The notes beneath the pieces are model-generated. The model was not told the DNA's origin. It made no database searches and saw nothing but the letters and a program-made list of their open reading frames with translations. The position numbers and the translations under genes are program-made. Of a stretch of DNA of 64,000 nucleotides, positions 27,298 to 46,682 are shown piece after piece. This DNA comes from a virus, in the IMG/VR virus record IMGVR_UViG_3300046673_000114, positions 1 to 64,000 of that record. One strand, written 5' to 3'. Each line of letters starts with the position of its first letter. The first letter of the stretch is position 1.

Positions 27298-27315
27298 TTA
27301 TATATAGTTAGACAT
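27298..27315 (+). promoter_or_regulatory. Conserved TATA-containing promoter motif TTATATAGTTARACAT (also 28638-28654 and 34229-34244)
   Basis: Three near-identical intergenic copies. Confidence 0.65.
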
Positions 27316-27330
27316 AGTAGTATATACTAG

Positions 27331-28538
27331 GTCAATTACCCACGCTAAAGCGATGGGCTTGTATCTCCTTCAACTTTTAGGGATACAATAGGCTGATTGA
27401 CGGCAGCCCTCGAAGCGATGTTCTTTGCCGCATTTATATCGGCGTTTTCAGTGTATCCACACGCAACGCAAACAAACTCGCTCTGTGTCTTGCGGTTCTT
27501 CTTGTCAATGTGTCCACACTCTGAACACTGCTTCGACGTGTTTCGCGGGTCGATTAGATGGACGGGAACGCCGTTGAGTTTCGCTTTGTAGTCTACGAAC
27601 CATCTCAACTGGCCGAACGCCCACTTACCGAGTCTACCACGCTGTGCCTTTCTAACCGTTGTCCGAGAGCGTATGTGCGTCAAGTCCTCTAATACAATCG
27701 CTCTCTTTGTGTCTTTGGCTATTCCAACAATAACTTTTGAAATACAATGATTGAGATTCGTCTTAAACTTCCGTTCTTTGCCGCTCGTCCGCTTCAGATG
27801 CCGCTTCGCGCTCTTGGTTCCTTTCGACTGAAGTGCTGACTTTAGCTTCGTGTAGCGCGTTCTAACAGCATCGGCCTTATCGCCACTGAAGTGCTGACCG
27901 TCGCTTGTGGTTGCGATATTGACAATTCCCAAGTCTACACCTAAGTAGCCTTCCGCGTTGTATTCTGTCACCCCTTCAACTTCCACGACCACGCAGAGAT
28001 AGAACGTTCCCTTTTGAAGTATCAAGTCGGCTTGTCCTCTGACTCGTCGCTGTTCAAGTTGGGCGTAGTCCCCGATTGAGAACGGTATGAGCTTTCGACC
28101 GTCGAGAGTCAAGATTGAAACCGAATCGAGAGACTTGAACGATAATATTCTTTGGTCATAGACAACAGCGCTGTGTGGTTTGAACGTGTGTAGCTCTTGC
28201 CGGTGTCCTTTGCCACGGTATGACTCTGAGACTTTGGCTATCGCTCTGACTGCTAACTGTGCCGATAAACCGTAGGTATCTCGAATATAACGATAATGCT
28301 GCTTTTGAAGCGTCCGTTTACCGAATACTCCTTCTTGATAGGAGACTGACGAAACGTAGTTGCACGCTTCGTTGAACCGTTCCATTGTGGTTAAGAGGGC
28401 AGCATATTGCTCGTCGGTCGGATTGAGCTTTGCTTTAACGGTTAGCAGCATCATAGAATATATGGCTCTATTCTTAGTTAAGTTTTGTGTTAGACGCGAT
28501 TCCTCTCAACGCTAAAGCAGTTGAGCTTCCTCGCTCGA
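27331..28538 (-). mobile_element. IS200/IS605-family tnpB-only element 1
   Basis: Subterminal hairpins at both ends; RE ends GGGTAATTGAC; LE preceded by TTTAT on the minus strand. Confidence 0.88.
27345..28454 (-). CDS. tnpB: RNA-guided nuclease TnpB
   Basis: GVDLG, LEDL, CSECG/CVACG zinc ribbon, NADINAA. Confidence 0.95.
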   Translation of the reverse strand: MMLLTVKAKLNPTDEQYAALLTTMERFNEACNYVSSVSYQEGVFGKRTLQKQHYRYIRDTYGLSAQLAVRAIAKVSESYRGKGHRQELHTFKPHSAVVYDQRILSFKSLDSVSILTLDGRKLIPFSIGDYAQLEQRRVRGQADLILQKGTFYLCVVVEVEGVTEYNAEGYLGVDLGIVNIATTSDGQHFSGDKADAVRTRYTKLKSALQSKGTKSAKRHLKRTSGKERKFKTNLNHCISKVIVGIAKDTKRAIVLEDLTHIRSRTTVRKAQRGRLGKWAFGQLRWFVDYKAKLNGVPVHLIDPRNTSKQCSECGHIDKKNRKTQSEFVCVACGYTENADINAAKNIASRAAVNQPIVSLKVEGDTSPSL

Positions 28539-28692
28539 ATAAATGTGACGAGCCCGACGGCGACGAAAAGTTAAAACGTCGCCTTATCTTTCTTTTTCGA
28601 TTTAAAGCTTAATACGTAACGCATAGTAGCATATAGCTTTATATAGTTAAACATCTATCTATAATATGTCGAAAGACGAGGTGACTACAAAA

Positions 28693-28821
28693 ATGCAAGA
28701 ACGTGAATCCGTTTATCAACGCGCGATGCGCGAGGGCTACAAGCCGTGGAAGGGTTCGAACGCTACGAAGCCTGCAAACTACTGGTTCGCGCCGAGAGAA
28801 GCGAAGAATACAAGGCGTTAA
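28693..28821 (+). CDS. Small early protein (42 aa)
   Basis: GAGGTGA RBS downstream of the promoter motif. Confidence 0.55.
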   Translation: MQERESVYQRAMREGYKPWKGSNATKPANYWFAPREAKNTRR

Positions 28822-28823
28822 AA

Positions 28824-29354
28824 ATGACCGTATCAGATGAAGAACTACACGTCCGCACGCACGGACGGCTTTTTTACTGTAAAGCGTGCGGATATAAAGT
28901 TATCGCGCTCGAGGACGAAGCGCGCGGTAGTCTCTGTCCGAAGTGTAATAAGAGAAAACTTGTAGTAGAAGACGAAGAGCAGGCCGAGAAGCAGAAGAAA
29001 ACGACCGATACGCGGATGAATAAAGCAAAGAAGATGTACAACTCGGGAATGAGGGCATACCCCGCAGCAGAGAATATGTGGTATGTTAAGGGAAGTAAAG
29101 GAGACGTCTACAGCGTAGCGCGAAAAGGAGACGAAGACTTTTCTTGCACGTGTACCGACTTCACCATTCGCGGCGGTAACTGCAAACACATTTACTTAGT
29201 TAAACTATGTTTACCTATACAAGAATTAGACGGGCTTATTATCCTCCCTAAAAATGAAACAAAAGAGGCTAGAGCCGAATTTGGCGCAAACGAAGCGATG
29301 AGTTTCTATGAGAATAAGAAACTTAAAAAACTACATCACGGAATCGATTGGTGA
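28824..29354 (+). CDS. Zinc-ribbon plus SWIM zinc-finger protein
   Basis: CKAC/CPKC; CTCTDF...CKHI. Confidence 0.75.
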   Translation: MTVSDEELHVRTHGRLFYCKACGYKVIALEDEARGSLCPKCNKRKLVVEDEEQAEKQKKTTDTRMNKAKKMYNSGMRAYPAAENMWYVKGSKGDVYSVARKGDEDFSCTCTDFTIRGGNCKHIYLVKLCLPIQELDGLIILPKNETKEARAEFGANEAMSFYENKKLKKLHHGIDW

Positions 29355-33101: not shown

Positions 33102-33302
33102 ATGGCAATGATAGACATATGTATCCGTTGCCGTGGAAACCGAGGAATACACTTTGTGCGCTCACAATACGGTAAAAAATACCTATGTGACTCGCAGCAT
33201 AATAGTTGGTTAGCGTATGAGCGACGACTAGAAGACCTAAACGCCACGTGGCCGAAAGAGCGACTTTCGAGGATTTGCTTATGTCTCGGCGGTCGGTTTT
33301 AA

Positions 33303-33894
33303 GAGGTGAAAAATGACTAAAAAAGAGTTAGACAAACCAAAAAGTGTGGAACCCTATGACCCCACCGAGCAAACAATTCATGCGGGGGATTGGTGGTACT
33401 CAGTCAGTTATATTGCTGAGAATGGAATGGCTGGAGATGGCTGCGAGGATTGTAAGCACCTAAAGGTTCTTGACCCGAACGACACGTGTCATGAAAACTA
33501 TAATAACCGACCTTCGTTGCCGTGTTACTCATATGAGACAGAAGAATGAGGTGAAAAATGAACTGTGACGAGACATTAGAGACTATCAAAGGTTATCTCG
33601 ATAGTGATTTAGATAGCGAAACTAAAATCGTAGCCATCAAAACCATTTTGCGAGTTTATACGGGAAAAAGAGGTGAAAAATGACTAAAGACTATATGGAG
33701 TTATATTGGTTTAGTGAGAAAGAAGGAGATTACGGTTGGTGGAGAAAAAAAGAAGCTGGAGAATTTGATGTTAAAAATGAGGTGAAAAATGACTAATGAA
33801 CCAATAGCAGTAATAGACGGCAGGGTTGAGATAATCCCGCAGTTCTTTGACGGGGTATGGATATTCGTTATGGCGGAAGAGGTGAAAAATGACT
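33303..33894 (+). repeat. Five copies of GAGGTGAAAAATGA, each starting a small ORF
   Basis: Copies at 33303, 33548, 33670, 33779 and 33879. Confidence 0.85.
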
Positions 33895-34209
33895 GATTTA
33901 GAACGATTTGAATTATTAAATGAACTCATAGAACGGTTCTCTCGATTCGAGATTCCGGAATCAATAATTTGTAGTGATTTATTAAATGAACTCATAGAAC
34001 GGTTCTCTCGATTCGAGATTCCGGAATCAATAATTTGTACTGAGTTACAGGAATTTCCAACAGAAGATTTACTTGCAGAACTAAAAAGACGAGAGCGAAA
34101 TAATAAAAGTATGGATGATACGAAAAAAGTGGTTAGGCATATTCCACTATTAGATGAAGTTGAACAAGATGGGGTAACCCTAAAAAAGAAGAAGAAAAAT
34201 GAGGTTTAA
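33889..34209 (+). CDS. Hypothetical protein with an in-frame tandem duplication (66-bp period)
   Basis: LLNELIERFSRFEIPESIIC occurs twice (33913, 33979). Confidence 0.6.
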   Translation: MTDLERFELLNELIERFSRFEIPESIICSDLLNELIERFSRFEIPESIICTELQEFPTEDLLAELKRRERNNKSMDDTKKVVRHIPLLDEVEQDGVTLKKKKKNEV

Positions 34210-34278
34210 TGCTAAACGCACCCTATTATTATATAGTTAAACATAGTATCATATATCAATTACGAGGTGACTTTAAAA

Positions 34279-35148
34279 ATGATACAAAAAAAGTTTTGTT
34301 TAATAGGAATTGTACTAGCGGCATTAATGCTCGTGAGTGTGTGCGGCTGTTTAACGCCTCAACCTCAGAGTGTGCCTTTAGCACCAGAAAACGTTTCGAT
34401 TAAGCCAACGACCGTAACTACGCACGTAACGGCGAAAGCGTCGGTTATACCTTCGGTTACGCCATCAGTTGCACCATCGGCGACACCATCACCAACGGCT
34501 ACGCCTACACAGACTACACTTAGCATAAGCGGCCCCACGACGATGATAGAAGGCGGCGGCGGTGTATGGATTGTTTACATTAACGGCCAGCTACCAACCG
34601 CGTCACAATCAAACCAGATAGTGTGGAATAGCGGCGGTCTGCCCGGCGGCGAAGTTACTGCGACGGGACACCCACTCGGCCCGAGCGGACCCTACGGTTC
34701 GTGGGTTATAGACGCTAACGGCGCTGCAACTACAGCTCAGGGAACGCATACGTTAGTAGCGACGTATCAAGGTGTAAGCGCGTCTTATACTATTACGCGG
34801 CTTCCTAATTCGAATACAGCGACGCCAACGGTAGGCACGGTTCAAACCGGACTAGAGGTTATAATGAGCGCTTCGGGACCGGGGGGCAATATAATCTACA
34901 TAAACCAAACAGCTACCGGAACCATAACTATCAATCCCGCAAGTGCTTCAAGTGAGGGTACCCCGACAGCTACAATTGACGGGAGTGCTTACCCCGCGGT
35001 CACCATAACACCATCTAGCATAGGTTCGTGGTCTATTAGTTTTAATCCTAGTGACCTTTCAGTTGGTCAACACGAACTCGTAGTAGTGTATCCTAGTAAT
35101 TCACATTACTTATCTTCGGATATGGCCGTAGTGCTTAACGTTGTATAG
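34279..35148 (+). CDS. Secreted/lipid-anchored surface protein with Pro/Thr linker and Ig-like domains
   Basis: KK-hydrophobic-VCGC lipobox-like N-terminus; its own promoter and RBS. Confidence 0.7.
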   Translation: MIQKKFCLIGIVLAALMLVSVCGCLTPQPQSVPLAPENVSIKPTTVTTHVTAKASVIPSVTPSVAPSATPSPTATPTQTTLSISGPTTMIEGGGGVWIVYINGQLPTASQSNQIVWNSGGLPGGEVTATGHPLGPSGPYGSWVIDANGAATTAQGTHTLVATYQGVSASYTITRLPNSNTATPTVGTVQTGLEVIMSASGPGGNIIYINQTATGTITINPASASSEGTPTATIDGSAYPAVTITPSSIGSWSISFNPSDLSVGQHELVVVYPSNSHYLSSDMAVVLNVV

Positions 35149-35746
35149 TATGTGAAATAGCGACACCCTAGCAGCGACCTAAACCTCTTTTTTTTGGCTT
35201 TCTTTTGTAATACAGCGTCCGCTATAGAAGTGGGACTAATACTCTAGGGTTTTCGTGTCGAAAAGAGTGTTGTAGAAGCGTAGAAGAATGAAAGACGAGA
35301 CCCTAGAAAATAACGTGGCGGAAATGGAGGTTGTGGGATGCTACAAATTTATCTCGTCTTTGTTTCTTCTAGGGATTAGCTAAGCGGCCAAACCCTATAG
35401 GTATAGACACAGTGAAACGTTATATAGATTTAGTAATGGGTTAACAAGTGTTAAGACGTGAAGGGGGGGAGGGTTACTTTAGGTTGTAACACTAAAAACG
35501 ACACCACCCGCTAAATCTCGAAATTGTGTGAAAGAAGAGCATACTATTATTATCTTATTATTATTATTATTATTATTAAATAAAAATCTTTATTAATATA
35601 TATACTACAAGCTAAACTAGACCCTAGTCGTCTACCCGTAAGCTGTTAGAACTAAAACTAACCCCCACCCCCTCGCGCAGCGAATCTTTAAATACTTGTT
35701 TCATTCAAAACAAAATTATATAAGCTAAAGTATCTAACTATTCTCT
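35149..35746. other. Putative replication origin
   Basis: Directly upstream of cdc6; AT-rich (TTA)n core flanked by inverted G-string repeats; ACCCTAG repeats. Confidence 0.65.
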
Positions 35747-36889
35747 ATGAGTTATATCCTAGACCTAGCAAAAAGTTCGTCACCAATCATTAAAGACGAG
35801 CATATTCTAGAATCGAATTATATTCCAGATACAATCGTCGGTCGACATAAGCAGCAAGAAGAGATGTGGCCGCCACTTTCTCATCTTATGAAAGGTCAAC
35901 CAGCGCATCATTTACTCTTAATGGGGCATAACGGTTCCGGTAAAACGGTTGTCATTCGTAGCGTTCTTCGGGACCTCGAGACGGTAACCGACTTTCAGAC
36001 GATATATCTCCCAAGCGTGCGCGACCCTAAGCCTAACTCGGTAATGCGTCGACTTCTAGAAGCATCAGGCGTGGCGCTCCCACCGAAAGACGAGTCGGTA
36101 GCGAGTCTAATAAATCTTCTTGATAAGCATTTATCCACCATAGATAAGCCCATTATATTCATATTCGACGAAATAGACTTCTTTATCTCAAAGGATATGT
36201 GGACGGTTCTTAATTATATCGTGCGCGAAAGAGATATGGCGACCGTCGTAGGCACGACGAACGACCCGAGGCTTCTAAGTAAGATACCGGATAAAAAGTT
36301 AATCTCGGCATATAGACCCTCAACCGTAACATTTCCGCCGTATAACACAGACGAACTACGAGAAATACTCGAGTCGAGAGCTGAGAAAGCGCTTTATGCG
36401 AACGTATTAGAAGCTGAGGTTATACCTCGATGTGCTGCGTTGGCGGTTAGGTTAAATAACGGTGATGCTCGTTACGCTATCTCATTGCTTTCGAAGGCCG
36501 CCGAGATATGTCATACAAACCTTCAAAAGAAAGTTACTAGCGAAGATGTTATACAAGCGGTGCAAGAGCTAGAGAACGAAGAATATGATAAAATAGCCTC
36601 GTTATTATCGGAGCGGCATAAGAACATTCTACGCATATTAATTATTAAAGATAACATACGACGAGCAGAACTACAGGAAGTCTACGAAACTAATAATTCC
36701 TATGATGTTATTTCCGATGTGTGGTTCGCGAGAGAGCTAAGAACGTTAGAAGAATTTGGTCTTATAATCCGATGGTCTAAAGGTAAGGGTCGCGGACTAG
36801 GCGTTACGTGGTTTGTTTCGTTACACGAGGACATTGATAAAGAGAAACTTAAAGAAGTTTTATACCGTGATTTAGGTGGCGGGGCGTGA
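35747..36889 (+). CDS. cdc6: Orc1/Cdc6 replication initiator
   Basis: GHNGSGKT Walker A, IFDEID Walker B, FPPYNTDEL, GDAR, C-terminal winged helix. Confidence 0.93.
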   Translation: MSYILDLAKSSSPIIKDEHILESNYIPDTIVGRHKQQEEMWPPLSHLMKGQPAHHLLLMGHNGSGKTVVIRSVLRDLETVTDFQTIYLPSVRDPKPNSVMRRLLEASGVALPPKDESVASLINLLDKHLSTIDKPIIFIFDEIDFFISKDMWTVLNYIVRERDMATVVGTTNDPRLLSKIPDKKLISAYRPSTVTFPPYNTDELREILESRAEKALYANVLEAEVIPRCAALAVRLNNGDARYAISLLSKAAEICHTNLQKKVTSEDVIQAVQELENEEYDKIASLLSERHKNILRILIIKDNIRRAELQEVYETNNSYDVISDVWFARELRTLEEFGLIIRWSKGKGRGLGVTWFVSLHEDIDKEKLKEVLYRDLGGGA

Positions 36890-38115
36890 CTTCTCCCCCA
36901 GCTAAAGCAGGGGGCTTCTATCGATTGAACGAACAGAGGCAAGCCCACCTCTGAGTATGTTGATTGCAGCGTTCTCATCGCGGTCAGCGACATAGCCGCA
37001 GTCACACGAATGTATGCGGTCTTTCAGTTCCTTCTTGACTATTTGACCACACCTGCTACATTCCTGAGTAGTATTCTTAGGATTCACCAGCACCACTATT
37101 GAACCAGCTTCCTCCGCTTTGTTCTGTGTTGCGTTAATGAATTGAGTCCACGCAGCGTCGCCTATCGATTTGGCGAGGTAGTGATTCTGCTGCATACCTT
37201 TGACGTTCAAATCTTCAAAGGCGATTATGCCGAATCTGTTAACGATTGCACGGCTCAGTTGATGCGCGAAGTCGTTTCGTCTGTTAGCTATCCGTTCGTG
37301 GATTCTTGACACCACCTTTCGGGCTTTCTTCCTTTGTGGTGCGCCTTTCGCTTGAGCTGAGAGTTTACGCTGCGCTTTCGCTAACGCTTTTTCATCGTGC
37401 CTAAAGAATCGTGGGTTCTCGACTTTCTCACCATTAGACAGCGTGGCAAACGACGTTAGTCCTACGTCTACCCCAACAACAGCCCCGTCTTTGAATGTTT
37501 GGGTCTTAGGTTCGTATTCTGTGGTGAAACAAGCAAACCACTTCCCCATAGAACGCTTGTTTATGTTCAGCCGTTTTATCACACCTTCAATCGGGCGATG
37601 CAACACTATCTTGACGTTTCCTATCTTTGACAGCATTAAATCATCTGCTTTAAGAGCGAATCCCATTTGTGGGTAGGTGAATGAATCATAGCGCCCTTTG
37701 CCTTTGAACCTCGGATAACCTGCTTCTTTCTCTCCTGCTTTGACACGTCTAAAGAACGCTTTGAAGGCTAAGTCCACACGTTGAGAGACTTCTTGTAGCA
37801 CTTGCGAATGAACGCTTGTCAGCTCCGGTCTATCACGCTTCCATATTGGTATCAACTTGTTCGTGTCATATCTGCCAAGTGTCACACCCTTTGACTCATA
37901 TGCGGTCTTTCGCGTGGCTAATACCTCATTATATACCCATCGGCACAACTCTAAGGTTTGATTCATCTTAGTTTCCTGTGCCTTTGTCGGATAGAGCCGA
38001 TAGCGATAGACCTTATGCATTGTTTATCTATTGGCATTATTAGCATAAGAATGTTAGGGTTAGGAACGCTCTGTATCCCCACCTTAAAAGGTTGGGGTTT
38101 TATCGCTGCTCACTC
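36886..38115 (-). mobile_element. IS200/IS605-family tnpB-only element 3
   Basis: RE ends GGGAGAAGTCAC; LE preceded by TTTAT; terminal hairpins. Confidence 0.88.
36902..38020 (-). CDS. tnpB: RNA-guided nuclease TnpB
   Basis: YRYRLYPT N-terminus, GVDVG, FEDL, DRDENAA. Confidence 0.95.
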   Translation of the reverse strand: MHKVYRYRLYPTKAQETKMNQTLELCRWVYNEVLATRKTAYESKGVTLGRYDTNKLIPIWKRDRPELTSVHSQVLQEVSQRVDLAFKAFFRRVKAGEKEAGYPRFKGKGRYDSFTYPQMGFALKADDLMLSKIGNVKIVLHRPIEGVIKRLNINKRSMGKWFACFTTEYEPKTQTFKDGAVVGVDVGLTSFATLSNGEKVENPRFFRHDEKALAKAQRKLSAQAKGAPQRKKARKVVSRIHERIANRRNDFAHQLSRAIVNRFGIIAFEDLNVKGMQQNHYLAKSIGDAAWTQFINATQNKAEEAGSIVVLVNPKNTTQECSRCGQIVKKELKDRIHSCDCGYVADRDENAAINILRGGLASVRSIDRSPLL

Positions 38116-38220
38116 ATAAAGAAAGCATCATAGCAAAATACGGCCAAATAGGCGACGACGAGCAGGTACACATAGTTCAGTTTAGAAGAGAGTAAAAACT
38201 ATTAACAAGTGTTAACCTAT

Positions 38221-38297: not shown

Positions 38298-38555
38298 ATT
38301 CGAAAAAGAACTAAAGTTTTAATAATCGGCGTTCTCGTGCTACTTCTCATACTTGGCGTTTATCTGGTGATTAGTCCGCCGTCGGTTACCCCTACACCAA
38401 CACCGTCACCAACGCCATTAGTCACACCAACGCCGACACCCACCCCGACACCATCACCAAGCCCGACACCGACACCGAACCCGCCAGCGCCAGCACCAAA
38501 ACCTACACCCACTCCAACGCCAACGTGTCGACCGTGTTACGTGACTTATGGATAA
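38298..38555 (+). CDS. Membrane-anchored Pro/Thr-repeat peptide (start uncertain: ATT 38298 or GTG 38337)
   Basis: GGAGGA RBS; basic-hydrophobic N-terminus; (PT)n; CRPC. Confidence 0.55.
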
Positions 38556-38803
38556 GTGCGATAGCTGCGCGAACTATCTTCATTGCGACATAAAACCTAG
38601 AGAGAACTGCGACGCGTATCGATACAGCGAGCTTCGTGATACGGCGCGGTGGGTCTGCTAAACTTCTAAGCTAGAAAAAGCACCTACCGCTTTTATTCTT
38701 CTTTTTCTCTTAACTATCATAATATCAAAATAGCATTAGCTATTTATACAGGGGCGGCCTTTAGTAATTTGTGTGAAGTGTAAGCTTCACGAGGTGACTA
38801 ACA

Positions 38804-39091
38804 ATGCCTACAACCGAAGAAAACTGGGAATTCCTCGAGAACCTCGTTCTTAAGGAAATCGACCGTGAAAACGAAAAACTCGCGTACTGGGTAGAAGTGC
38901 TCGCAGAATATGGCGCAGACCTTCATAAGATTAGCGAGGAAGAACTAACTTCCGTTCCCGCGCACGTCGAGGTCAACGAAAAGCTCATCGGTACTCTTAC
39001 GGGTATAAAGACCGCAGTAGCCGCCGCTGAGAAGTCGAACAACGCGCTTCTTATCGCGAAGCACCAGCTTCTCGAGCTTTACAACGCGTAA
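38804..39091 (+). CDS. Helical hypothetical early protein
   Basis: TATA-like element at about 38743; GAGGTGA RBS. Confidence 0.65.
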   Translation: MPTTEENWEFLENLVLKEIDRENEKLAYWVEVLAEYGADLHKISEEELTSVPAHVEVNEKLIGTLTGIKTAVAAAEKSNNALLIAKHQLLELYNA

Positions 39092-39136
39092 CAGCAGACG
39101 AGATGGTTAAGAGGCTTATACGAACGTGGAGGTCGG

Positions 39137-39577
39137 TCACCTCATAACTTCGCGAATTAAATCCTCTTTCGTATCGTTCTCTTTTTCTTTTTCTATAACC
39201 CTAACTACATTAAGTAGGTCATAGAAAATAATACGTCGAAGGTGAATCTCTTCGTATAAAAAAGTTTTAAGGTCTTCATCGCGCACGTTGCTCGCGAGAT
39301 GTTCAGCGTCTTGGATAAGTCCTAGGATATGTTCTACTTGCGCTAAGTGCGACTCGTGAGGCACATACTCCTGCGGGTCGTACCTCGCAGGGAAGTACAC
39401 CTGCCAAACGCCACCAAACTCTGAATCGATTCGTCGAAACTTAGTTATACAACGCGCGTGGCAGGTTCTATCTCTAGAATCTAGAATTATACTCTCGTCA
39501 AAGCCAGCTCTATCGGTTATTCTATGCGCCGTGCTTTCACGAATCTTAGGTTTTTCTTTCTGTGTCATAACCTGCAC
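39137..39577 (-). CDS. Hypothetical protein
   Basis: 146-aa ORF co-oriented with the upstream HNH gene. Confidence 0.55.
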   Translation of the reverse strand: MQVMTQKEKPKIRESTAHRITDRAGFDESIILDSRDRTCHARCITKFRRIDSEFGGVWQVYFPARYDPQEYVPHESHLAQVEHILGLIQDAEHLASNVRDEDLKTFLYEEIHLRRIIFYDLLNVVRVIEKEKENDTKEDLIREVMR

Positions 39578-40197: not shown

Positions 40198-40316
40198 TAT
40201 AGAGATGTATGATATACTAGCTTATAGATATTACGCGCTATCGAAATTAACCATATGTTAATTATACACGATAAATCTCACTCTCATAAAAACACTTAAA
40301 TACGATATAGGCGCTC

Positions 40317-40550
40317 TATGTATTGAAAACTCTAAAGGAGGTAGTATATCAGGAAACGTGCAAAAGTTCGGTGCAATAGAGAAATTCGGAGACGTGCGTC
40401 TTTAAACATTCATCTCCAAAAGATAGAGCTTTCGACACACGTCTTTTAAATTTATCGACTTTGTCACCTCAGCGCCTAGGGTGCGACTCTGTAACCTCAC
40501 CTCCCGCAGTGTCGCGCCCTCGTATCTCAAAGAGTTTTTATCGAAACATA
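40317..40550 (+). ncRNA. Predicted multi-hairpin RNA with anti-Shine-Dalgarno loops
   Basis: Closing stem 40325-40333/40531-40539; hairpins 40390-40444 and 40478-40520; TCACCTCC in a loop. Confidence 0.55.
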
Positions 40551-41076: not shown

Positions 41077-41345
41077 TGTCTCAGCTCAAATACGACGATG
41101 TAATGGGTAAAGAGGCACAAGATAAGCTAACCGGGCTTAAAGGGATTATTGTAGCCGTAGGGGAATACTATAACGGCTGCGTTCAGTACCTCGTTAAACC
41201 GGCAGAGATAAAGGACGGTAAACGCATCGAGGGCGAATGGATTGATAGAGAATTCTTAGAAATTCTCGGTCAGAAGCTCACACGCGAGAACGTTAAACCG
41301 GCCGGTGGTCCTAGTTCTAGTGACCCGCCGTTGGGTGTTATTTAA
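41076..41345 (+). CDS. Conserved phage hypothetical protein
   Basis: DKLTGLKG...YYNGCVQYLVKP...WID. Confidence 0.55.
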   Translation: MSQLKYDDVMGKEAQDKLTGLKGIIVAVGEYYNGCVQYLVKPAEIKDGKRIEGEWIDREFLEILGQKLTRENVKPAGGPSSSDPPLGVI

Positions 41346-41530
41346 CGTTTCAGGCGGGAAGTCTCCTTCCGAAAGGTGGGAGATGAGAGCCGCTCTTATC
41401 CAACACAAACCTTTATAGTTATAGAAAACAATGAGGAACTATGAAATATCAACTAAGCAAAGGCGCTCATTCCGTCTACGCACTCCAATACCACTTCGTT
41501 CAGTGTGTCAAATATAGGCGCGATGCTTTG
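41346..41530 (+). pseudogene. tnpA: IS200/IS605 left end plus truncated Y1 transposase
   Basis: IS-type hairpin at about 41352-41392; HSVYALQYHFVQCVKYRR, then unrelated sequence. Confidence 0.75.
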
Positions 41531-41625
41531 GTTGAGCCATGGCTCAGTGAGAACGATTATCCTGTCTTGAAAAAAGTAGACGGCGTTCTTAACTGGGAAT
41601 GGGTTATGTGGCAACTTAGGCAATT

Positions 41626-42315
41626 ATGATAGACACAATAATCTGCGGCGACTGCCTTGAGGTTTTAGAAGAGATGCCTGATAACTATGTGGATGCAATT
41701 ATAACTGACCCCCCTTACTCAAGCGGTGCGCGACGTGACGCAAACGCGAATCTGCGACAGGCGCGTCGTCGAGGGGAAGATAAGCGCGCGTTCAGCAATG
41801 ATACACTCACAAGCAAAACGTTCGCGTGGTTTATGCGGGCGTGCGGCTTACAATGGGCGCGCGTCTTAAAACCAGACGGCCATTTATTAATATTTATTGA
41901 CTGGTATCACGGATATAATATAGCAAACGCATTAGAAACGGCTGGGCTGAAACAGGTTAATTTAGTTGTATGGGACAAGCAGTACTTTGGTATGGGGCAT
42001 TACTTCCGCAATCAGCATGAACTAATATTACATTTTTTAAACTACGAACGTCCAAAACCGTTTGCGCAGAACGTAGGAAACGTTATCTCAATAAAACCAA
42101 TCCGTAACGGAATACACCCAACGGAAAAACCAGTTGAGTTGATAGAACGTATGTTACCCGTGGTAACTAATGAATACGACACCGTTCTCGACCCCTTTGC
42201 GGGCAGCGGCACAATCGCAGTCGCATGCCGTCGCAGCAACCGCCACTATATCTGCATCGAAAAAGAACCAGAATACTGCGCGATTGCTGAGAAACGAATC
42301 GCGGAGATGTTGTGA
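41626..42315 (+). CDS. DNA N6-adenine/N4-cytosine methyltransferase (beta class)
   Basis: TDPPY; HPTEKP; LDPFAGSGT. Confidence 0.92.
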   Translation: MIDTIICGDCLEVLEEMPDNYVDAIITDPPYSSGARRDANANLRQARRRGEDKRAFSNDTLTSKTFAWFMRACGLQWARVLKPDGHLLIFIDWYHGYNIANALETAGLKQVNLVVWDKQYFGMGHYFRNQHELILHFLNYERPKPFAQNVGNVISIKPIRNGIHPTEKPVELIERMLPVVTNEYDTVLDPFAGSGTIAVACRRSNRHYICIEKEPEYCAIAEKRIAEML

Positions 42316-42407
42316 ACGCGCGATAAAATCGGAATGGAGCGTATTCCAGAATATAAAGAACTAATGATAGAAACAAATAAAAGAACGAACGTGTTAAAGC
42401 ATTAGCT

Positions 42408-42505
42408 GTTATCGGTGGGTTCTCCGTCGCTGGTCAGCTCACCAATAACGTCGACCGCCGACTTACATTCGGTTAGTCACCTCGTAAGCGGCGGTTAACT
42501 TTTAT
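42408..42505 (+). ncRNA. Two-hairpin small RNA candidate, antisense to early-gene translation starts
   Basis: Stems 42408-42449 and 42450-42499 plus a T-run; 42472-42485 is the exact reverse complement of 38789-38802. Confidence 0.6.
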
Positions 42506-42509
42506 TCAT

Positions 42510-42878
42510 ATGAAAAAACAATGCGCGTGCGGGACGGTTTTGCTCTATGCTAAAGAGCGGGGTATTGTTATTCTTCAGTGTCCTAACTGTGGTCGACACT
42601 ATTCTCTTGGATATATCTATAACGAGATAGAAACCTCATTACCGCTCGACGTCACCGATAGAAAAATACTATCGTATCTATGCGCGAAACCGTGTTGCAC
42701 ACCCCTAGAGATATGCGCGCTCTTCGACGACGAAGCACCGTCATATGATACGATTCTACGTAAAGTGCAAAGACTAGCTAGACACGGCTACGTTGAAGCG
42801 CAGAAAAGAAAGAACGGCCGGTGGATTTACTACGCCACCGAAAAGCTAGAGAGTTTAAATCGAGGTGAAAGGCGCTGA
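42510..42878 (+). CDS. Zinc-ribbon plus winged-HTH regulator
   Basis: CACG/CPNCG; DRKILSYL...VQRLARHGYVE. Confidence 0.7.
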   Translation: MKKQCACGTVLLYAKERGIVILQCPNCGRHYSLGYIYNEIETSLPLDVTDRKILSYLCAKPCCTPLEICALFDDEAPSYDTILRKVQRLARHGYVEAQKRKNGRWIYYATEKLESLNRGERR

Positions 42879-42959
42879 GTTGCCACTAAGAAACAGCTTA
42901 GAAAACCCTTTATACGTAACCTTTAAAGAATTAAGCAGCTCATCGCCCACCAAATATAT

Positions 42960-43496
42960 ATGCAAAAACCAAACTTCTCGGAAGACCTCGCATTTTCATT
43001 AGACCCATTACACGCTGAGATGATGGATACATTTTATATCGATTTCTTCGGCGCGATGGGTCTAGAAGTAGTAGAGGTTAAACACATCACCGACCGAGCA
43101 GAACAGAAAAAAGGCTACGATAAGCTCATTAAGCTCGATAACGGGCAGTTTATCCGCGTGGAAGAAAAACGAGATAGATACGTTACAGGAAATTTAGTAC
43201 TAGAGTTATGGTCGGACTCGGATAGAAAAAGAGGGTGGTTGTACACCAGTACTGCCGATTTTCTTTGTTATCATTTCATTAATACGGGAATCACTCATAT
43301 GCTTCCAATGCCGCTATTACGGCGCGCGTGGATGCTTAACGAAAAGTTATGGCTAGACGTCTACGACGAGAAACATATTAAAAATCGCGCATGGACGACG
43401 ATAATACTTCCCGTACCTGTGACCGTTCTTCGTGCTGCGCTTATGGAAGCGATGGAGCACGACCACGTTTTAATAGCTGAGAAGTGTTTAGTTTAA
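42960..43496 (+). CDS. PD-(D/E)XK-type nuclease-like protein
   Basis: QKKGYD...VEEKRD..TGNLVLE...GWLY. Confidence 0.6.
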   Translation: MQKPNFSEDLAFSLDPLHAEMMDTFYIDFFGAMGLEVVEVKHITDRAEQKKGYDKLIKLDNGQFIRVEEKRDRYVTGNLVLELWSDSDRKRGWLYTSTADFLCYHFINTGITHMLPMPLLRRAWMLNEKLWLDVYDEKHIKNRAWTTIILPVPVTVLRAALMEAMEHDHVLIAEKCLV

Positions 43497-43808
43497 ATGA
43501 TTCACCCACGACCTAAACCACTATCGTCATATCCTGCTCACGAGAAAAACAGCCTAGAGCAGATACCGATATTAACCTATGAAGTAGGCGATTTGGCTAA
43601 GATGTTTGCTTATGCTCATCGCTATAGGTTGGTCGATAAAGAGAGAAGTAAAGGCTATAGAATCGAAGCGCGAATAGCCGCTTCTGATGTTATAGCTCAA
43701 ATGGTCGTGATGTGTGAGCGCGAAGGCTGGAATTTTTATGAAGTGAAGAAGCTCGGCGAGGAACGCTTTAGGGAGAAAATAGAGCGGCATAGGCTCTATA
43801 AAGAATAA
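43497..43808 (+). CDS. MazG-like NTP pyrophosphohydrolase-like protein
   Basis: EVGDLAK...SDVI helical pattern. Confidence 0.45.
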   Translation: MIHPRPKPLSSYPAHEKNSLEQIPILTYEVGDLAKMFAYAHRYRLVDKERSKGYRIEARIAASDVIAQMVVMCEREGWNFYEVKKLGEERFREKIERHRLYKE

Positions 43809-44374
43809 TGGCATACAAAGACCCCGAGAAGAAAAAGGAACGCGATAAAGCGTATCACATAGCGAATAGAGAAAAACGAAACGCGTATGCTCGGCAATGG
43901 CGTGAGAAAAATCGAGAGAAACTTTATATAACTCAAAAAGCGTGGCGAGATTCTCATAGAGAGCACATCTTACAAAATAAAAAGGAGTATTATCAGAAGA
44001 ACCGCGAGAAAATTCTAGAACGTGAAAAAGAGCGCTATAACGAGAAGCGGGGTAATCCGAAATATATCGCGAAGCATAGAGAGTACGGTCGTAAGCATCG
44101 TCAAAAAATACGCGATATAGTTATTGCGCACTACGGTGGCGATTCACCCCACTGTATGTGTTGCGGCGAAACAACTCTACAGTTCTTAACAGTGCATCAT
44201 ATTAATGGAGATGGTGCGGCCCATAGGCGCTCGATTGGTAATTCTGGTTTATATGAGTGGATTATAAAGCATAACTATCCTACGGGGTTAGAATTACAAT
44301 GTTGGAACTGTAATCTAGCAAGTTATCAGTATGGGATATGTCCTCATAAAATAAAAGAAGGCGATAAATTTTGA
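43808..44374 (+). CDS. HNH-like endonuclease with helical basic repeats
   Basis: CMCCGE..FLTVHH...QCWNCN. Confidence 0.75.
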   Translation: MAYKDPEKKKERDKAYHIANREKRNAYARQWREKNREKLYITQKAWRDSHREHILQNKKEYYQKNREKILEREKERYNEKRGNPKYIAKHREYGRKHRQKIRDIVIAHYGGDSPHCMCCGETTLQFLTVHHINGDGAAHRRSIGNSGLYEWIIKHNYPTGLELQCWNCNLASYQYGICPHKIKEGDKF

Positions 44375-45363
44375 AAATATTATTTGTATGCAGAAAGCGC
44401 GGCCCCTACGGATACTTATCATCGGGGCTTTTTAATTCGGTGAAGTTTCTCGTCGATATGCTCGACGATATGGGGATAGACTCGAGAATGGTCGACGTGG
44501 TTAATAACAACCAAATCGATAAAGAAGTTAAGTCGTACCAGCCGACTCATGTTATAATAGAAGCGCTATGGGTCGTTCCTAAGAAGTTTAAAGTTCTCAT
44601 GGAACTTTACCCTAATGTGGAGTGGGTCGTGAGACTTCATTCGGACATACCATTCCTAGCAAACGAGGGTATAGCTTTTGAATGGTTATTCGAGTATATA
44701 ACAAACGGGGTAACAATCGCTTCGAATAAAGAAAGCGTGGCTAAGTTGCTTACGAAGGTTCTTCGAACGGAAGTAAAGTACCTACCGAATTATTATCCCG
44801 TCACGAATGAACCCTTCGAGCACGGTGCTAAGCACGGCGACACGCTAAACGTGGGTTGTTTCGGCGCGATTCGCCCCCTAAAGAATCAGCTCGCACAGGC
44901 GTTCGCGGCCATTCGATTCGCCGATGAACAAAATAGAAGACTAAGATTCCATATGAACGTCGGGAGGGTCGAGGCGTGCGGCGAGACAATCGAGAGAAAC
45001 ATACGTGCCGTTTTTAAGAACCTTCCGGGGCATCACGAGCTTATAACTCATAAATGGTACGACCACGACGAATTCACGAAATTATGTAAAAAGATGAATG
45101 TAGGTATGCAGGTTTCTTTTTCTGAGACCTATAATCTAGTTACTGCTGATTTCGTAAACGTAAATGTGCCAGTGGTGGTTTCTAGTGAAGTGCGGTGGGT
45201 TTCTAAAGAGTGCGTAACGAGTCCGAATAACATAGAGAGCATAGTTAAAACGATGAGTCGAGTATTCAACGATGGTAAACTCGTTCGCGCGAATCGTGAG
45301 TTGCTCATTTGGGAAGACGTAAAAACTAAAACCGCGTGGGCGGCATTTTCACTCGAGGGATAA
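44371..45363 (+). CDS. Glycosyltransferase (GT-B, GT4-like)
   Basis: MKILFV; FGAIRPLKN; SFSETYNLV; VPVVVS. Confidence 0.75.
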   Translation: MKILFVCRKRGPYGYLSSGLFNSVKFLVDMLDDMGIDSRMVDVVNNNQIDKEVKSYQPTHVIIEALWVVPKKFKVLMELYPNVEWVVRLHSDIPFLANEGIAFEWLFEYITNGVTIASNKESVAKLLTKVLRTEVKYLPNYYPVTNEPFEHGAKHGDTLNVGCFGAIRPLKNQLAQAFAAIRFADEQNRRLRFHMNVGRVEACGETIERNIRAVFKNLPGHHELITHKWYDHDEFTKLCKKMNVGMQVSFSETYNLVTADFVNVNVPVVVSSEVRWVSKECVTSPNNIESIVKTMSRVFNDGKLVRANRELLIWEDVKTKTAWAAFSLEG

Positions 45364-46682
45364 TGGACGCGTTTAAAGGGCTTATTTCTGAAAAATCCGC
45401 GAGAATAGCGGTAATTGGATTAGGCTACGTCGGCTTATCTACTGCTGTTGCGTTCGCAGACGCTGGCTTTCAAACGGTCGGCGTCACGCGCACACAGAGC
45501 AAAGTAGACACATTAAACGCCGGGAATAGTTACCTACCCGACGTGCAGCGGGACACTATAATTAGCTCACTCGTCGGTAGCGGATTATTAAAGGCAACAA
45601 CTAATGTAGAAGAAGCAGTTGAATGTAGCGATGTTATTATTATTACGGTTCCTACGCCGCTCACGAAGTCAATGGAACCCGACCTAACGGCGATTAAAGA
45701 TGTAGGTAAACAAATAGGTAAAACATTAGATACGGGGCAGCTTATCATCCTAGAATCGACCGTCTATCCCGGCGTTACCGAAGACGTGTTAGCACCACTT
45801 CTCGAAGAATCGGGGCTTAAAGCAGGTAAAGATTTCGGATTAGCCTATTGTCCCGAGAGATATAACGTAGGAGATATAGCTCATTCTATATCGAATACGC
45901 CTCGAATCGTGGGCGGCATAACCGATGAATGGGGTAGCTTAGCGGTAGAGCTGTATCTTCATATTACAAAATACGTGTCTCTCGTTAAGAACATTAAGAC
46001 CGCAGAAGCCACGAAGTTAACAGAGAACATTCAACGAGACGTAAACATTGCCTTAATGAACGAACTAGCGGTAGCATATCCAGAGATGGGGGTTGACATA
46101 GAAGACGTCATAGACGCAGCGAGCACGAAATGGAACTTTAACGTTTATAATCCGGGCGCAGGGGTTGGTGGAGAATGTTTACCAGTTAACGCGTATTATC
46201 TCACCTACCGCGCGCAGCAGCTCGGGCATTATCTCCCACTCATACGAACCGCGCGATTAGCGAATGATGCTATGCCTTATCATGTCGTTAAACTCACACT
46301 CGACGCACTACGACAACATCAGTGTAAGATAGACGATTCGCGCGTAACGGTTCTAGGGGTGTCATACAAACCAAACATTGCAGACCGGCGCGGAAGCCCG
46401 AGCTATGAAGTTATAGATACGTTAAAGAACCACGGTGTTGAGGTGCGCGTTAGCGACCCGTACCTTCCATATAATGAGATAGAAGTTGACGTTCTCGACG
46501 ACACCGATGTAATAATTCTTATGACCGCGCATATGGAATACCTAACGCTCGATTTTAAAGAAATAAAAGAATGGGTAAGAACGCCGATTATCATCGACGG
46601 GCGTCGAAGGCTTAATGGTGAATATCTAAAAAGTTTAGGATTTACGTATAAAGGGGTAGGCGTGGTAAATGGAAGTTATTGA
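45363..46682 (+). CDS. Nucleotide-sugar (UDP-HexNAc) 6-dehydrogenase, WecC/WbpA family
   Basis: GLGYVG; VPTP; ESTVYPG; CPER; GVGGECLP; GVSYKPN. Confidence 0.93.
   Translation: MDAFKGLISEKSARIAVIGLGYVGLSTAVAFADAGFQTVGVTRTQSKVDTLNAGNSYLPDVQRDTIISSLVGSGLLKATTNVEEAVECSDVIIITVPTPLTKSMEPDLTAIKDVGKQIGKTLDTGQLIILESTVYPGVTEDVLAPLLEESGLKAGKDFGLAYCPERYNVGDIAHSISNTPRIVGGITDEWGSLAVELYLHITKYVSLVKNIKTAEATKLTENIQRDVNIALMNELAVAYPEMGVDIEDVIDAASTKWNFNVYNPGAGVGGECLPVNAYYLTYRAQQLGHYLPLIRTARLANDAMPYHVVKLTLDALRQHQCKIDDSRVTVLGVSYKPNIADRRGSPSYEVIDTLKNHGVEVRVSDPYLPYNEIEVDVLDDTDVIILMTAHMEYLTLDFKEIKEWVRTPIIIDGRRRLNGEYLKSLGFTYKGVGVVNGSY

Follow-up and report, generated by a model that had tools for sequence, protein, structure and literature searches.

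An intergenic element of two hairpins at positions 42408-42505 of an archaeal virus genome exposes a large loop that is complementary to the translation starts of distant viral genes, and its retention in a related virus supports the view that it is a real feature under selection. The element is likely a functional plus-strand RNA; that it serves as a virus-encoded antisense RNA is credible, and that it controls an antisense regulon is plausible. An earlier note on this DNA had described a trans-acting antisense sRNA directed at the starts of three early genes, a wording that our analysis finds too specific.

Origin of the sequence and organization of the element

The window, i.e., the whole 64-kb stretch of DNA analyzed, comprises the first 64 kb of the 80,483-bp record IMGVR_UViG_3300046673_000114. 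Its coding content includes tail genes, a terminase, and an Orc1/Cdc6 replication initiator that scores above the subfamily cut-off of NCBIfam (195 bits vs 181 for TIGR02928) and for which a Haloferax virus was the sole match among phage isolates. Some start codons, e.g., that of the Orc1/Cdc6 gene, are preceded at ~30 nt by promoter-like TATA boxes; DNA of the virus was found across many peat metagenomes and peat metatranscriptome libraries; and the nearest relatives of one TnpB encoded in the window belong mostly to Methanotrichaceae and Methanosarcinales genomes. On the strength of the initiator, the TATA boxes, the peat occurrence, and the TnpB relatives, there is good support for an origin from a tailed virus of archaea, with a methanogen-type host in peat. 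Since the virus is archaeal, scans for sigma-70 promoters and bacterial terminators were uninformative. Across the whole 64-kb window, there was no match to the Rfam 15 families, and no tRNA or tmRNA was found.

The element lies in a gap of 194 nt between a DNA methyltransferase gene (41626-42315) and a regulator gene (42510-42878), where we distinguish the following features:

42350..42361 (+), second, upstream copy of a TATA-like box, AATATAAAGAAC, seemingly a local duplication; the relative has a single box
42375..42386 (+), TATA-like box AAATAAAAGAAC, candidate promoter of the element from sequence alone, with a predicted start at ~42405-42408
42408..42449 (+), hairpin 1 of the RNA fold, with basal stem GTTAT/ATAAC and upper stem GGTGGGTT/AGCTCACC
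42453..42496 (+), hairpin 2, with an outer stem around CCGCCG/CGGCGG, inner stem CTTAC/GTAAG, and a 17-nt loop
42467..42488 (+), candidate pairing region (loop and 3′ arm), ATTCGGTTAGTCACCTC then GTAAG, with the anti-Shine-Dalgarno core TCACCTC
42500..42506 (+), T-run TTTTATT, possible archaeal termination signal; the next ATG is at 42510
42510..42878 (+), gene for a Zn-ribbon and winged-helix (wHTH) regulator without a Shine-Dalgarno sequence; the element is its 5′ neighbor in both viruses
42861..42868 (+), 8-nt stretch CGAGGTGA complementary to the loop, located at the 3′ end of the regulator gene and perhaps part of the same transcript

The plus strand of the element folds at -41.2 kcal/mol (z = -5.1), a value that none of 200 dinucleotide shuffles equaled, and the minus-strand fold is almost as stable (-40.4, z = -4.9). 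Within hairpin 2, the outer stem pairs 42453-42460 with 42489-42496 and the inner stem pairs 42462-42466 with 42484-42488, enclosing the loop at 42467-42483. The two-hairpin intergenic element with a terminal T-run reported in the earlier note is thus borne out by the fold (z = -5.1) and by TTTTATT at 42500-42506. A hairpin followed directly by a T-run between co-oriented genes has the arrangement that would be expected of a terminator or attenuator. Archaeal termination depends mainly on the U-tract, which is short in this element, and termination may be partial because the T-run holds just four consecutive T residues.

The regulator protein gave weak matches, slightly under the cut-offs, to Pfam HTH_24 and Penicillinase_R. 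One of its database homologues carries the source name "ArsR-family regulator," and one wHTH homologue at 93% identity is present in the databases. The gap from the regulator to the gene at 42960 (42862-42955) contains a conserved element in which GAGGTGAAAGGCGCTGAG, close to the start, can base-pair with CTCATCGCCCACC, just 5′ of the following ATG; the corresponding pairing is better in the relative (GGCGCTGAG/CTCAGCGCC), and this may be a second structured RNA.

The hairpin 2 loop is complementary to a set of leader cassettes

In a blastn-short search of the whole genome with the element as query, the three top-ranking non-self matches all fell antisense to translation starts. Specifically, perfect matches of 14 nt (42472-42485 vs 38789-38802, E = 0.027), 13 nt (34260-34272, E = 0.11), and 12 nt (28676-28687, E = 0.42) point to the leaders of genes 38804, 34279, and 28693, respectively, the same three as in the earlier note. 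The sites are as follows:

38789..38806 (+), leader cassette of gene 38804, ACGAGGTGACTAACAATG, the best complementary site
34260..34281 (+), leader of gene 34279, TTACGAGGTGACT then ATG, with the promoter TATAGTTAAACAT upstream
28676..28695 (+), leader of the 42-codon ORF 28693, 12 nt perfect and 19/24 positions including the ATG

The additional pairing claimed for the 38804 leader, through AATG and the upstream GCTT, also holds: the gapped match to 38789 runs through GCTT, a one-base gap, ACGAGGTGACTAAC, a two-base gap, and AATG, and it beats all 300 of 300 shuffles. In line with the genome-wide count that had been proposed, the shared motif ACGAGGTGACT occurs exactly four times in both the window and the 80,483-bp record, i.e., in the three leaders (28676+, 34262+, and 38789+) and as the inverted copy in the loop (42475-). 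With at most one mismatch, the expected number of matches to this motif is 0.66, and four were reached in 1 of 100 shuffles. Copies of the core GAGGTGA are rare as well, 11 on the plus strand and 6 on the minus strand in 80 kb. The element is not known to mimic the 3′ end of 16S rRNA past the 7-nt core, and this idea was rejected.

Sites 28676 and 34262 both carry the promoter TATAGTTAAACAT, of which the genome has four copies. Sites 28676, 34262, and 38789 are related leader cassettes and, therefore, not three independent matches. The products behind them differ: gene 34279 encodes a lipoprotein-like product with Ig-like domains, while the 42-codon ORF 28693 precedes a SWIM-finger ORF in another frame. 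This ORF overlaps the start of the 202-codon SWIM-finger ORF (GTG at 28746; 28693-29354), and the two may form a frameshifted or two-part gene.

Duplex energies were calculated with ViennaRNA duplexfold in a sliding window over both genome strands. Site 38789 proved the best non-self partner, at -24.3 kcal/mol for the loop and -30.9 kcal/mol for the extended region, while site 28676 ranked approximately eighth and site 34262 fell outside the top fourteen. Many coding windows score as well as these latter two sites, which lie within the background of the scan. The ranking therefore leaves just one of the three proposed targets, 38789, thermodynamically outstanding; the complementarity of the three-target set is real, but duplex energy does not single out the other two members.

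Leaders elsewhere in the record show further patterns. A promoter family, ATAGTTATATATAGTTAAACAT, occurs at 27303, 28642, and 34232 and at position 78263 of the record, joined either to ..CAATTAC.. or to ..GTCGAAAGAC.., and this joining to differing leader pieces suggests recombining promoter-leader modules; the copy at 27303 is directed into the 3′ end of a tnpB gene. Five successive small genes (33298-33899) begin with an identical GAGGTGAAAAATGA(C/A) cassette, a second leader class without extended complementarity to the element.

The element is conserved in a related virus

A search with TnpB among species-representative genomes led to a 95-kb contig filed in a Korobacteraceae (Acidobacteriota) metagenome-assembled genome (MAG) from SPRUCE peat. 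Most of this contig is collinear with the window, the shared genes being 67-78% identical in nucleotides, and it thus represents a related virus that was mis-binned in the MAG; an IMG/VR contig (L098) has the same sequence. The regulator orthologue of the relative is 56-58% identical to that of the window. No match was found by DNA in the phage isolate collection; IMG/VR searches with the wHTH protein, a neighboring protein, the terminase, and DNA patterns returned nothing or chance matches; and further IMG/VR scans yielded the one relative only. Likewise, no relative was found among JGI metagenome contigs and no third lineage in samples of ~400 genomes each from the candidate-host phylum, the candidate-host class, and the family of the MAG, and no such element stands beside four distant homologues of the neighboring protein.

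The two-hairpin element of the relative is located at L098 481-564, directly 5′ of the regulator orthologue; its folding energy is -41.7 kcal/mol, with z-scores of -5.3 (plus strand) and -4.2 (minus strand). When the window copy alone was used to build a covariance model, the model recovered this element as the sole other full match in 181 kb (28 bits, E ~2e-4), with one aligned pair non-canonical. An equal-scoring second match, at 42352-42452 on the minus strand of the window, overlaps the element, and we read it as hairpin 1 itself on the opposite strand. The stems compared below were taken from the covariance-model alignment, MAFFT alignments of the two elements not being structure-aware:

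TATA-like box: AAATAAAAGAAC in the window; AATATATAGAAC in the relative (L098 450-461)
Hairpin 1, basal stem: GTTAT/ATAAC in the window; GTTAT/ATGAC in the relative (U-A to U.G)
Hairpin 1, upper stem: GGTGGGTT/AGCTCACC in the window; CGCGGG/CCCGCG in the relative (two double-sided changes)
Hairpin 2, outer stem core: CCGCCG/CGGCGG in both viruses
Hairpin 2, inner stem: CTTAC/GTAAG in the window; TTATG/CATAA in the relative (one C-G to U-A compensatory change)
Hairpin 2, loop: ATTCGGTTAGTCACCTC in the window; TTCGTTAGTCACCT in the relative
Sequence after hairpin 2: TTTTATT in the window; CTTTTA, in the same place, in the relative

The double changes in the upper stem of hairpin 1 convert G-C to C-G and U-A to C-G, and the U.G of the basal stem in the relative can pair on the plus strand only. 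The compensatory changes that the earlier note had suggested looking for in related viruses were found as three stem changes with pairing kept, in one relative lineage; because there are only two lineages, this co-variation rests on single events. The loop of the relative reads TTCG-TTAGTCACCT(C), with 16 of 17 positions kept and one base missing, so that TTCG(G)TTAGTCACCTC is common to both viruses, while the surrounding non-coding DNA is otherwise unalignable. In both viruses, the complementary bases sit in the apical loop of 14-17 nt and the 3′ arm next to it. The plain conservation of the loop and of the outer stem of hairpin 2 is uninformative on pairing of the loop with the proposed sites. 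From the start of the TATA-like box to the first paired base of hairpin 1, the distance is 33 nt in the window and 31 nt in the relative, where the box falls inside the end of the upstream coding sequence.

This conservation of position, structure, loop, and T-run makes a functional plus-strand RNA likely and bears directly on whether the element could be a non-functional relic, i.e., an inverted promoter-leader cassette left by rearrangement and perhaps a former minus-strand gene start. An origin of that kind would suit the minus strand, which reads GAGGTGA, 8 nt, and ATG-TAA, the ATGTAAG resembling ATGCAAG of ORF 28693, and insertion sequences and rearranged modules are present in the genome. 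Moreover, an inverted copy of the leader cassette would yield the same element-leader identity, and both the element and site 38789 are preceded by another short stretch of similarity, AGCATTAGCT, a hint that they descend from a common ancestor. A relic would not be expected, however, to keep its place, fold, loop, and T-run in the relative with compensatory stem changes, and the element has no similarity to the ends of IS200/IS605 copies. Because the element is conserved in the relative, we regard the relic reading as largely excluded and highly improbable.

Several IS200/IS605 elements are found in the record, including a complete tnpA and tnpB pair at its end (78970-80471), two further tnpB genes (27345-28454 and 36902-38020, both on the minus strand), and a left-end relic, immediately 5′ of the methyltransferase gene, in which tnpA is truncated to 62 codons; the 100-nt stretches preceding 41441 and 78970 are homologous. 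In contigs from two peat DNA runs, positions 35194-38116 (the Orc1/Cdc6 gene and a tnpB) are swapped for 1493 other letters, and the replication-initiator/IS region therefore differs among strains. Compared with this inventory (three tnpB genes, one full tnpA, and the left-end relic at ~41345-41629), the element shares no sequence with the flanks of the IS copies of the genome, and an IS200/IS605 end or a TnpB guide RNA was rejected as its identity. The copy in the relative is separated by ~1.8 kb from the closest transposase-like gene and is far from any tnpB-like sequence. A minus-strand gene start or mini-ORF was also rejected, as the ATG-TAA of the window reads ATA-AAT in the relative.

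Complementary sites in the relative precede unrelated genes

The exact motif ACGAGGTGACT is absent from the sequence of the relative. Its element matches the start region of a 406-residue transposase-like gene (a label from reading the sequence) over 13 nt, GTTATGAGGTGAC, and, over 11 nt, AGGTGACTAAC, a cassette, CACAGGTGACTAACAATGC, that stands behind a TATATATA box and before a 74-residue Zn-ribbon gene. The latter cassette is the same as that at 38789 of the window (CACGAGGTGACTAACAATGC), the shared part being AGGTGACTAACAATGC, and the proteins behind the two are unrelated. Immediately 5′ of the Shine-Dalgarno core, the window sites have C (pairing with G) and the relative has U (pairing with A), and the 5′ arm of the hairpin shifts in step with this C:G to U:A flank change. 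At the 3′ end of the regulator gene, the motif YGAGGTGAAAGGCGCTGAG is kept in the relative, there past the stop codon, and its first base co-varies likewise.

In the relative, different leaders precede the orthologues of 34279 and of the SWIM gene. A regulon of three early genes, as the earlier note had it, is therefore not upheld: the gene set is not conserved, and the sites of the relative precede unrelated genes. As to co-variation with the targets, one flank position changes together and matches of 13 and 11 nt are kept in the one relative lineage, but the targets are not orthologous. The conserved unit is the pair of loop and leader cassette, not a set of genes.

The spread of the shared 11-14 bp raises the question of a feature at the DNA level, i.e., an operator or cruciform for the neighboring regulator or a recombination boundary, in which the shared stretch is a protein-binding site. 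The motif does lie at or near the predicted transcription starts of three promoters and beside the gene of a DNA-binding regulator, mosaic leaders recombine among genes and viruses, and sequence cannot separate DNA hairpins from RNA hairpins. On the other hand, the motif is non-palindromic and, at the regulator gene, is inverted and differently placed relative to promoters; the G.U pairs in both viruses favor a plus-strand RNA helix; and the palindrome TTAACANNTGTTAA is a much better operator candidate. We consider a DNA-level role improbable.

This 14-bp palindrome has 8 copies in the 80-kb record (at 1980, 21264, 27046, 35441, 38202, 56778, and 63377 and at position 66602 of the record) and 7 in the relative, where ~0.005 would be expected. 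One copy lies between the element and the regulator start of the relative, and TTAACANNTGTTAA is a candidate operator or protein-binding site.

Linkage to the regulator gene and possible action in cis

The genes 5′ of the element are unrelated, that of the window encoding a DNA methyltransferase and that of the relative a coiled-coil protein. The element therefore belongs with the regulator gene; it marks where a variable gene island gives way to a conserved module. In place of positions 41-42.3 kb of the window, the island of the relative has an ATPase followed by a small protein, possibly a defense pair, together with a transposase-like gene and an AbrB-like small protein, all labels coming from reading the sequences.

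Both the linkage to the wHTH gene rather than to the differing upstream genes and the position at the module border would be expected of a cis-acting 5′ leader, attenuator, or insulator whose hairpins and U-tract stop or limit transcription that enters the wHTH module or starts there. Under such an explanation, the loop is kept for pairing with YGAGGUGAAAGG at the end of the cistron or for protein binding, and the distant complementarity is a by-product. The regulator starts 4 nt (window) or 19 nt (relative) past the U-tract and lacks a Shine-Dalgarno sequence or promoter of its own, and the 8-10-nt complement at the 3′ end of the cistron is conserved with the same C:G to U:A co-variation. However, the 8-nt site leaves the conservation of GUUAG in the loop unexplained, since GUUAG matches only the CUAAC of the distant cassettes in both viruses, and all of the longer matches (11-14 nt) are to distant sites. 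A role purely in cis is the strongest rival explanation, if a somewhat unlikely one, and is compatible with action in trans because leader-derived sRNAs exist.

Evidence for transcription of the virus in peat

The evidence from sequencing runs consists of assembled contigs, from which the strand and the RNA ends of the element are not readable. Contigs from RNA libraries cover the target genes, e.g., at 34260-34531, beginning 2 nt upstream of the motif, and at 38475-39564. RNA runs show very uneven depth along the virus, whereas depth in DNA runs is flat, which argues that the virus is really transcribed in these samples. In one RNA run (X15), a contig stops at 42192 and depth is lower past 42424; the binned depth suggests another RNA contig beginning near 42415, which we give no weight, uncovered stretches and contig ends not being evidence. 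Two DNA runs (X13 and X14) are identical to the window across 41574-46000, the element included, and therefore give no co-variation.

A separate observation concerns positions 40310-40349, 5′ of an SSB-like gene, where both viruses have TCTATGTATYGAAAAC..TAAA.GGAGGT behind a TATA-like box. One RNA-library contig stops exactly at 40349 with the adapter attached, which hints at a real RNA end, and the region 40400-40550 has many indels between strains.

A model for translational control by the element

The explanation that we tentatively prefer is that a leader-derived or independently terminated RNA uses its hairpin 2 loop to pair with the Shine-Dalgarno-to-start region of cassette mRNAs and so blocks initiation. 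The element would be a conserved, structured plus-strand RNA of ~85-100 nt, transcribed from the TATA-like box ~30 nt upstream. Its transcript would form the two hairpins and then end, or be read through, at the short U-tract facing the Zn-ribbon/wHTH gene. Hairpin 2 would display the large loop with the anti-Shine-Dalgarno core UCACCUC, the flanks of which may extend pairing to the leader cassette (U)UAYGAGGUGACUAAC..AUG, with which a few promoter-proximal viral mRNAs begin. Such pairing would cover both the Shine-Dalgarno sequence and the start codon and thereby block translation initiation in trans, while pairing in cis could occur with the weaker site at the 3′ end of that regulator cistron. 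For the element RNA, we infer transcription, strand, termination, pairing in vivo, and repression, and its main role may be that of a leader or attenuator for the regulator.

A bolder version, possible but rather doubtful in our view, is that, in tailed viruses of peat methanogen-type archaea, a leader-derived RNA of ~100 nt that is encoded together with a transcription regulator uses its anti-Shine-Dalgarno loop to silence specifically a mobile promoter-leader cassette whatever gene stands behind it, which would make it an archaeal counterpart of the c4/ant immunity RNA of phage P1 and the first trans-acting sRNA regulon of an archaeal virus.

If true in trans, this mechanism would bring a new level of regulation to the biology of archaeal viruses and extend the logic of masking ribosome-binding sites, used by phage RNAs and Methanosarcina sRNAs, to archaeal viruses; the 17-nt loop and the 20-nt leader cassette would also make a compact pair for translational switches in methanogens. 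Even if it acts in cis only, the element would represent a conserved structured leader of a viral regulator gene, and leader cassettes that move among unrelated genes would be useful for annotating such genomes.

Comparison with known systems

To our knowledge, post-transcriptional control in archaeal viruses is nearly unknown, and in the literature searched, the regulatory RNAs of archaeal viruses were cis-encoded antisense RNAs only, as in SSV1. The SSV1 RNAs (T3E and others), which lie opposite their target gene (bioRxiv 10.64898/2026.06.17.732947), and the element are alike as candidate non-coding regulatory RNAs of an archaeal virus, whereas the element is encoded apart from its candidate targets, with 11-14 nt in common. 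With terminators or attenuators made of a hairpin and oligo-U, the element shares GC-rich hairpins followed by a T-run, same-strand genes, and a module border, but a plain terminator needs no conserved 16-nt loop, second conserved hairpin, or promoter-like box at a fixed distance.

Among archaeal RNAs, sRNA154 and sRNA41 of Methanosarcina mazei mask ribosome-binding sites and repress translation (review PMC5867862). The element would resemble them in being archaeal and in placing anti-ribosome-binding-site sequences over Shine-Dalgarno regions, and a similar host group is likely, given that Methanotrichaceae and Methanosarcinales hold the closest TnpB relatives. They are, however, chromosomal and nitrogen-responsive with host-operon targets, whereas the element is viral with candidate viral leaders, and no homology of the element to either sRNA was detected.

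The c4 RNA lies upstream of the genes that it acts on, in an operon arrangement. In phages P1 and P7, its loop sequences face the ant ribosome-binding region, and c4 and P22 sar are among the functionally closest systems (PMC12197685). The c4 RNA is bacterial, depends on sigma-70 promoters, and is processed from a longer transcript, whereas the element is archaeal-viral, has no sequence or Rfam relationship to c4, and has its best sites 3.6-14 kb away, in other transcription units and before unrelated genes, with a function that is predicted here. By analogy with c4 of the ImmI region (P1/P7), the element would be a small structured viral RNA whose loop pairs with the ribosome-binding region and would block translation, and it, too, has a weak complementary site downstream, possibly on the same transcript.
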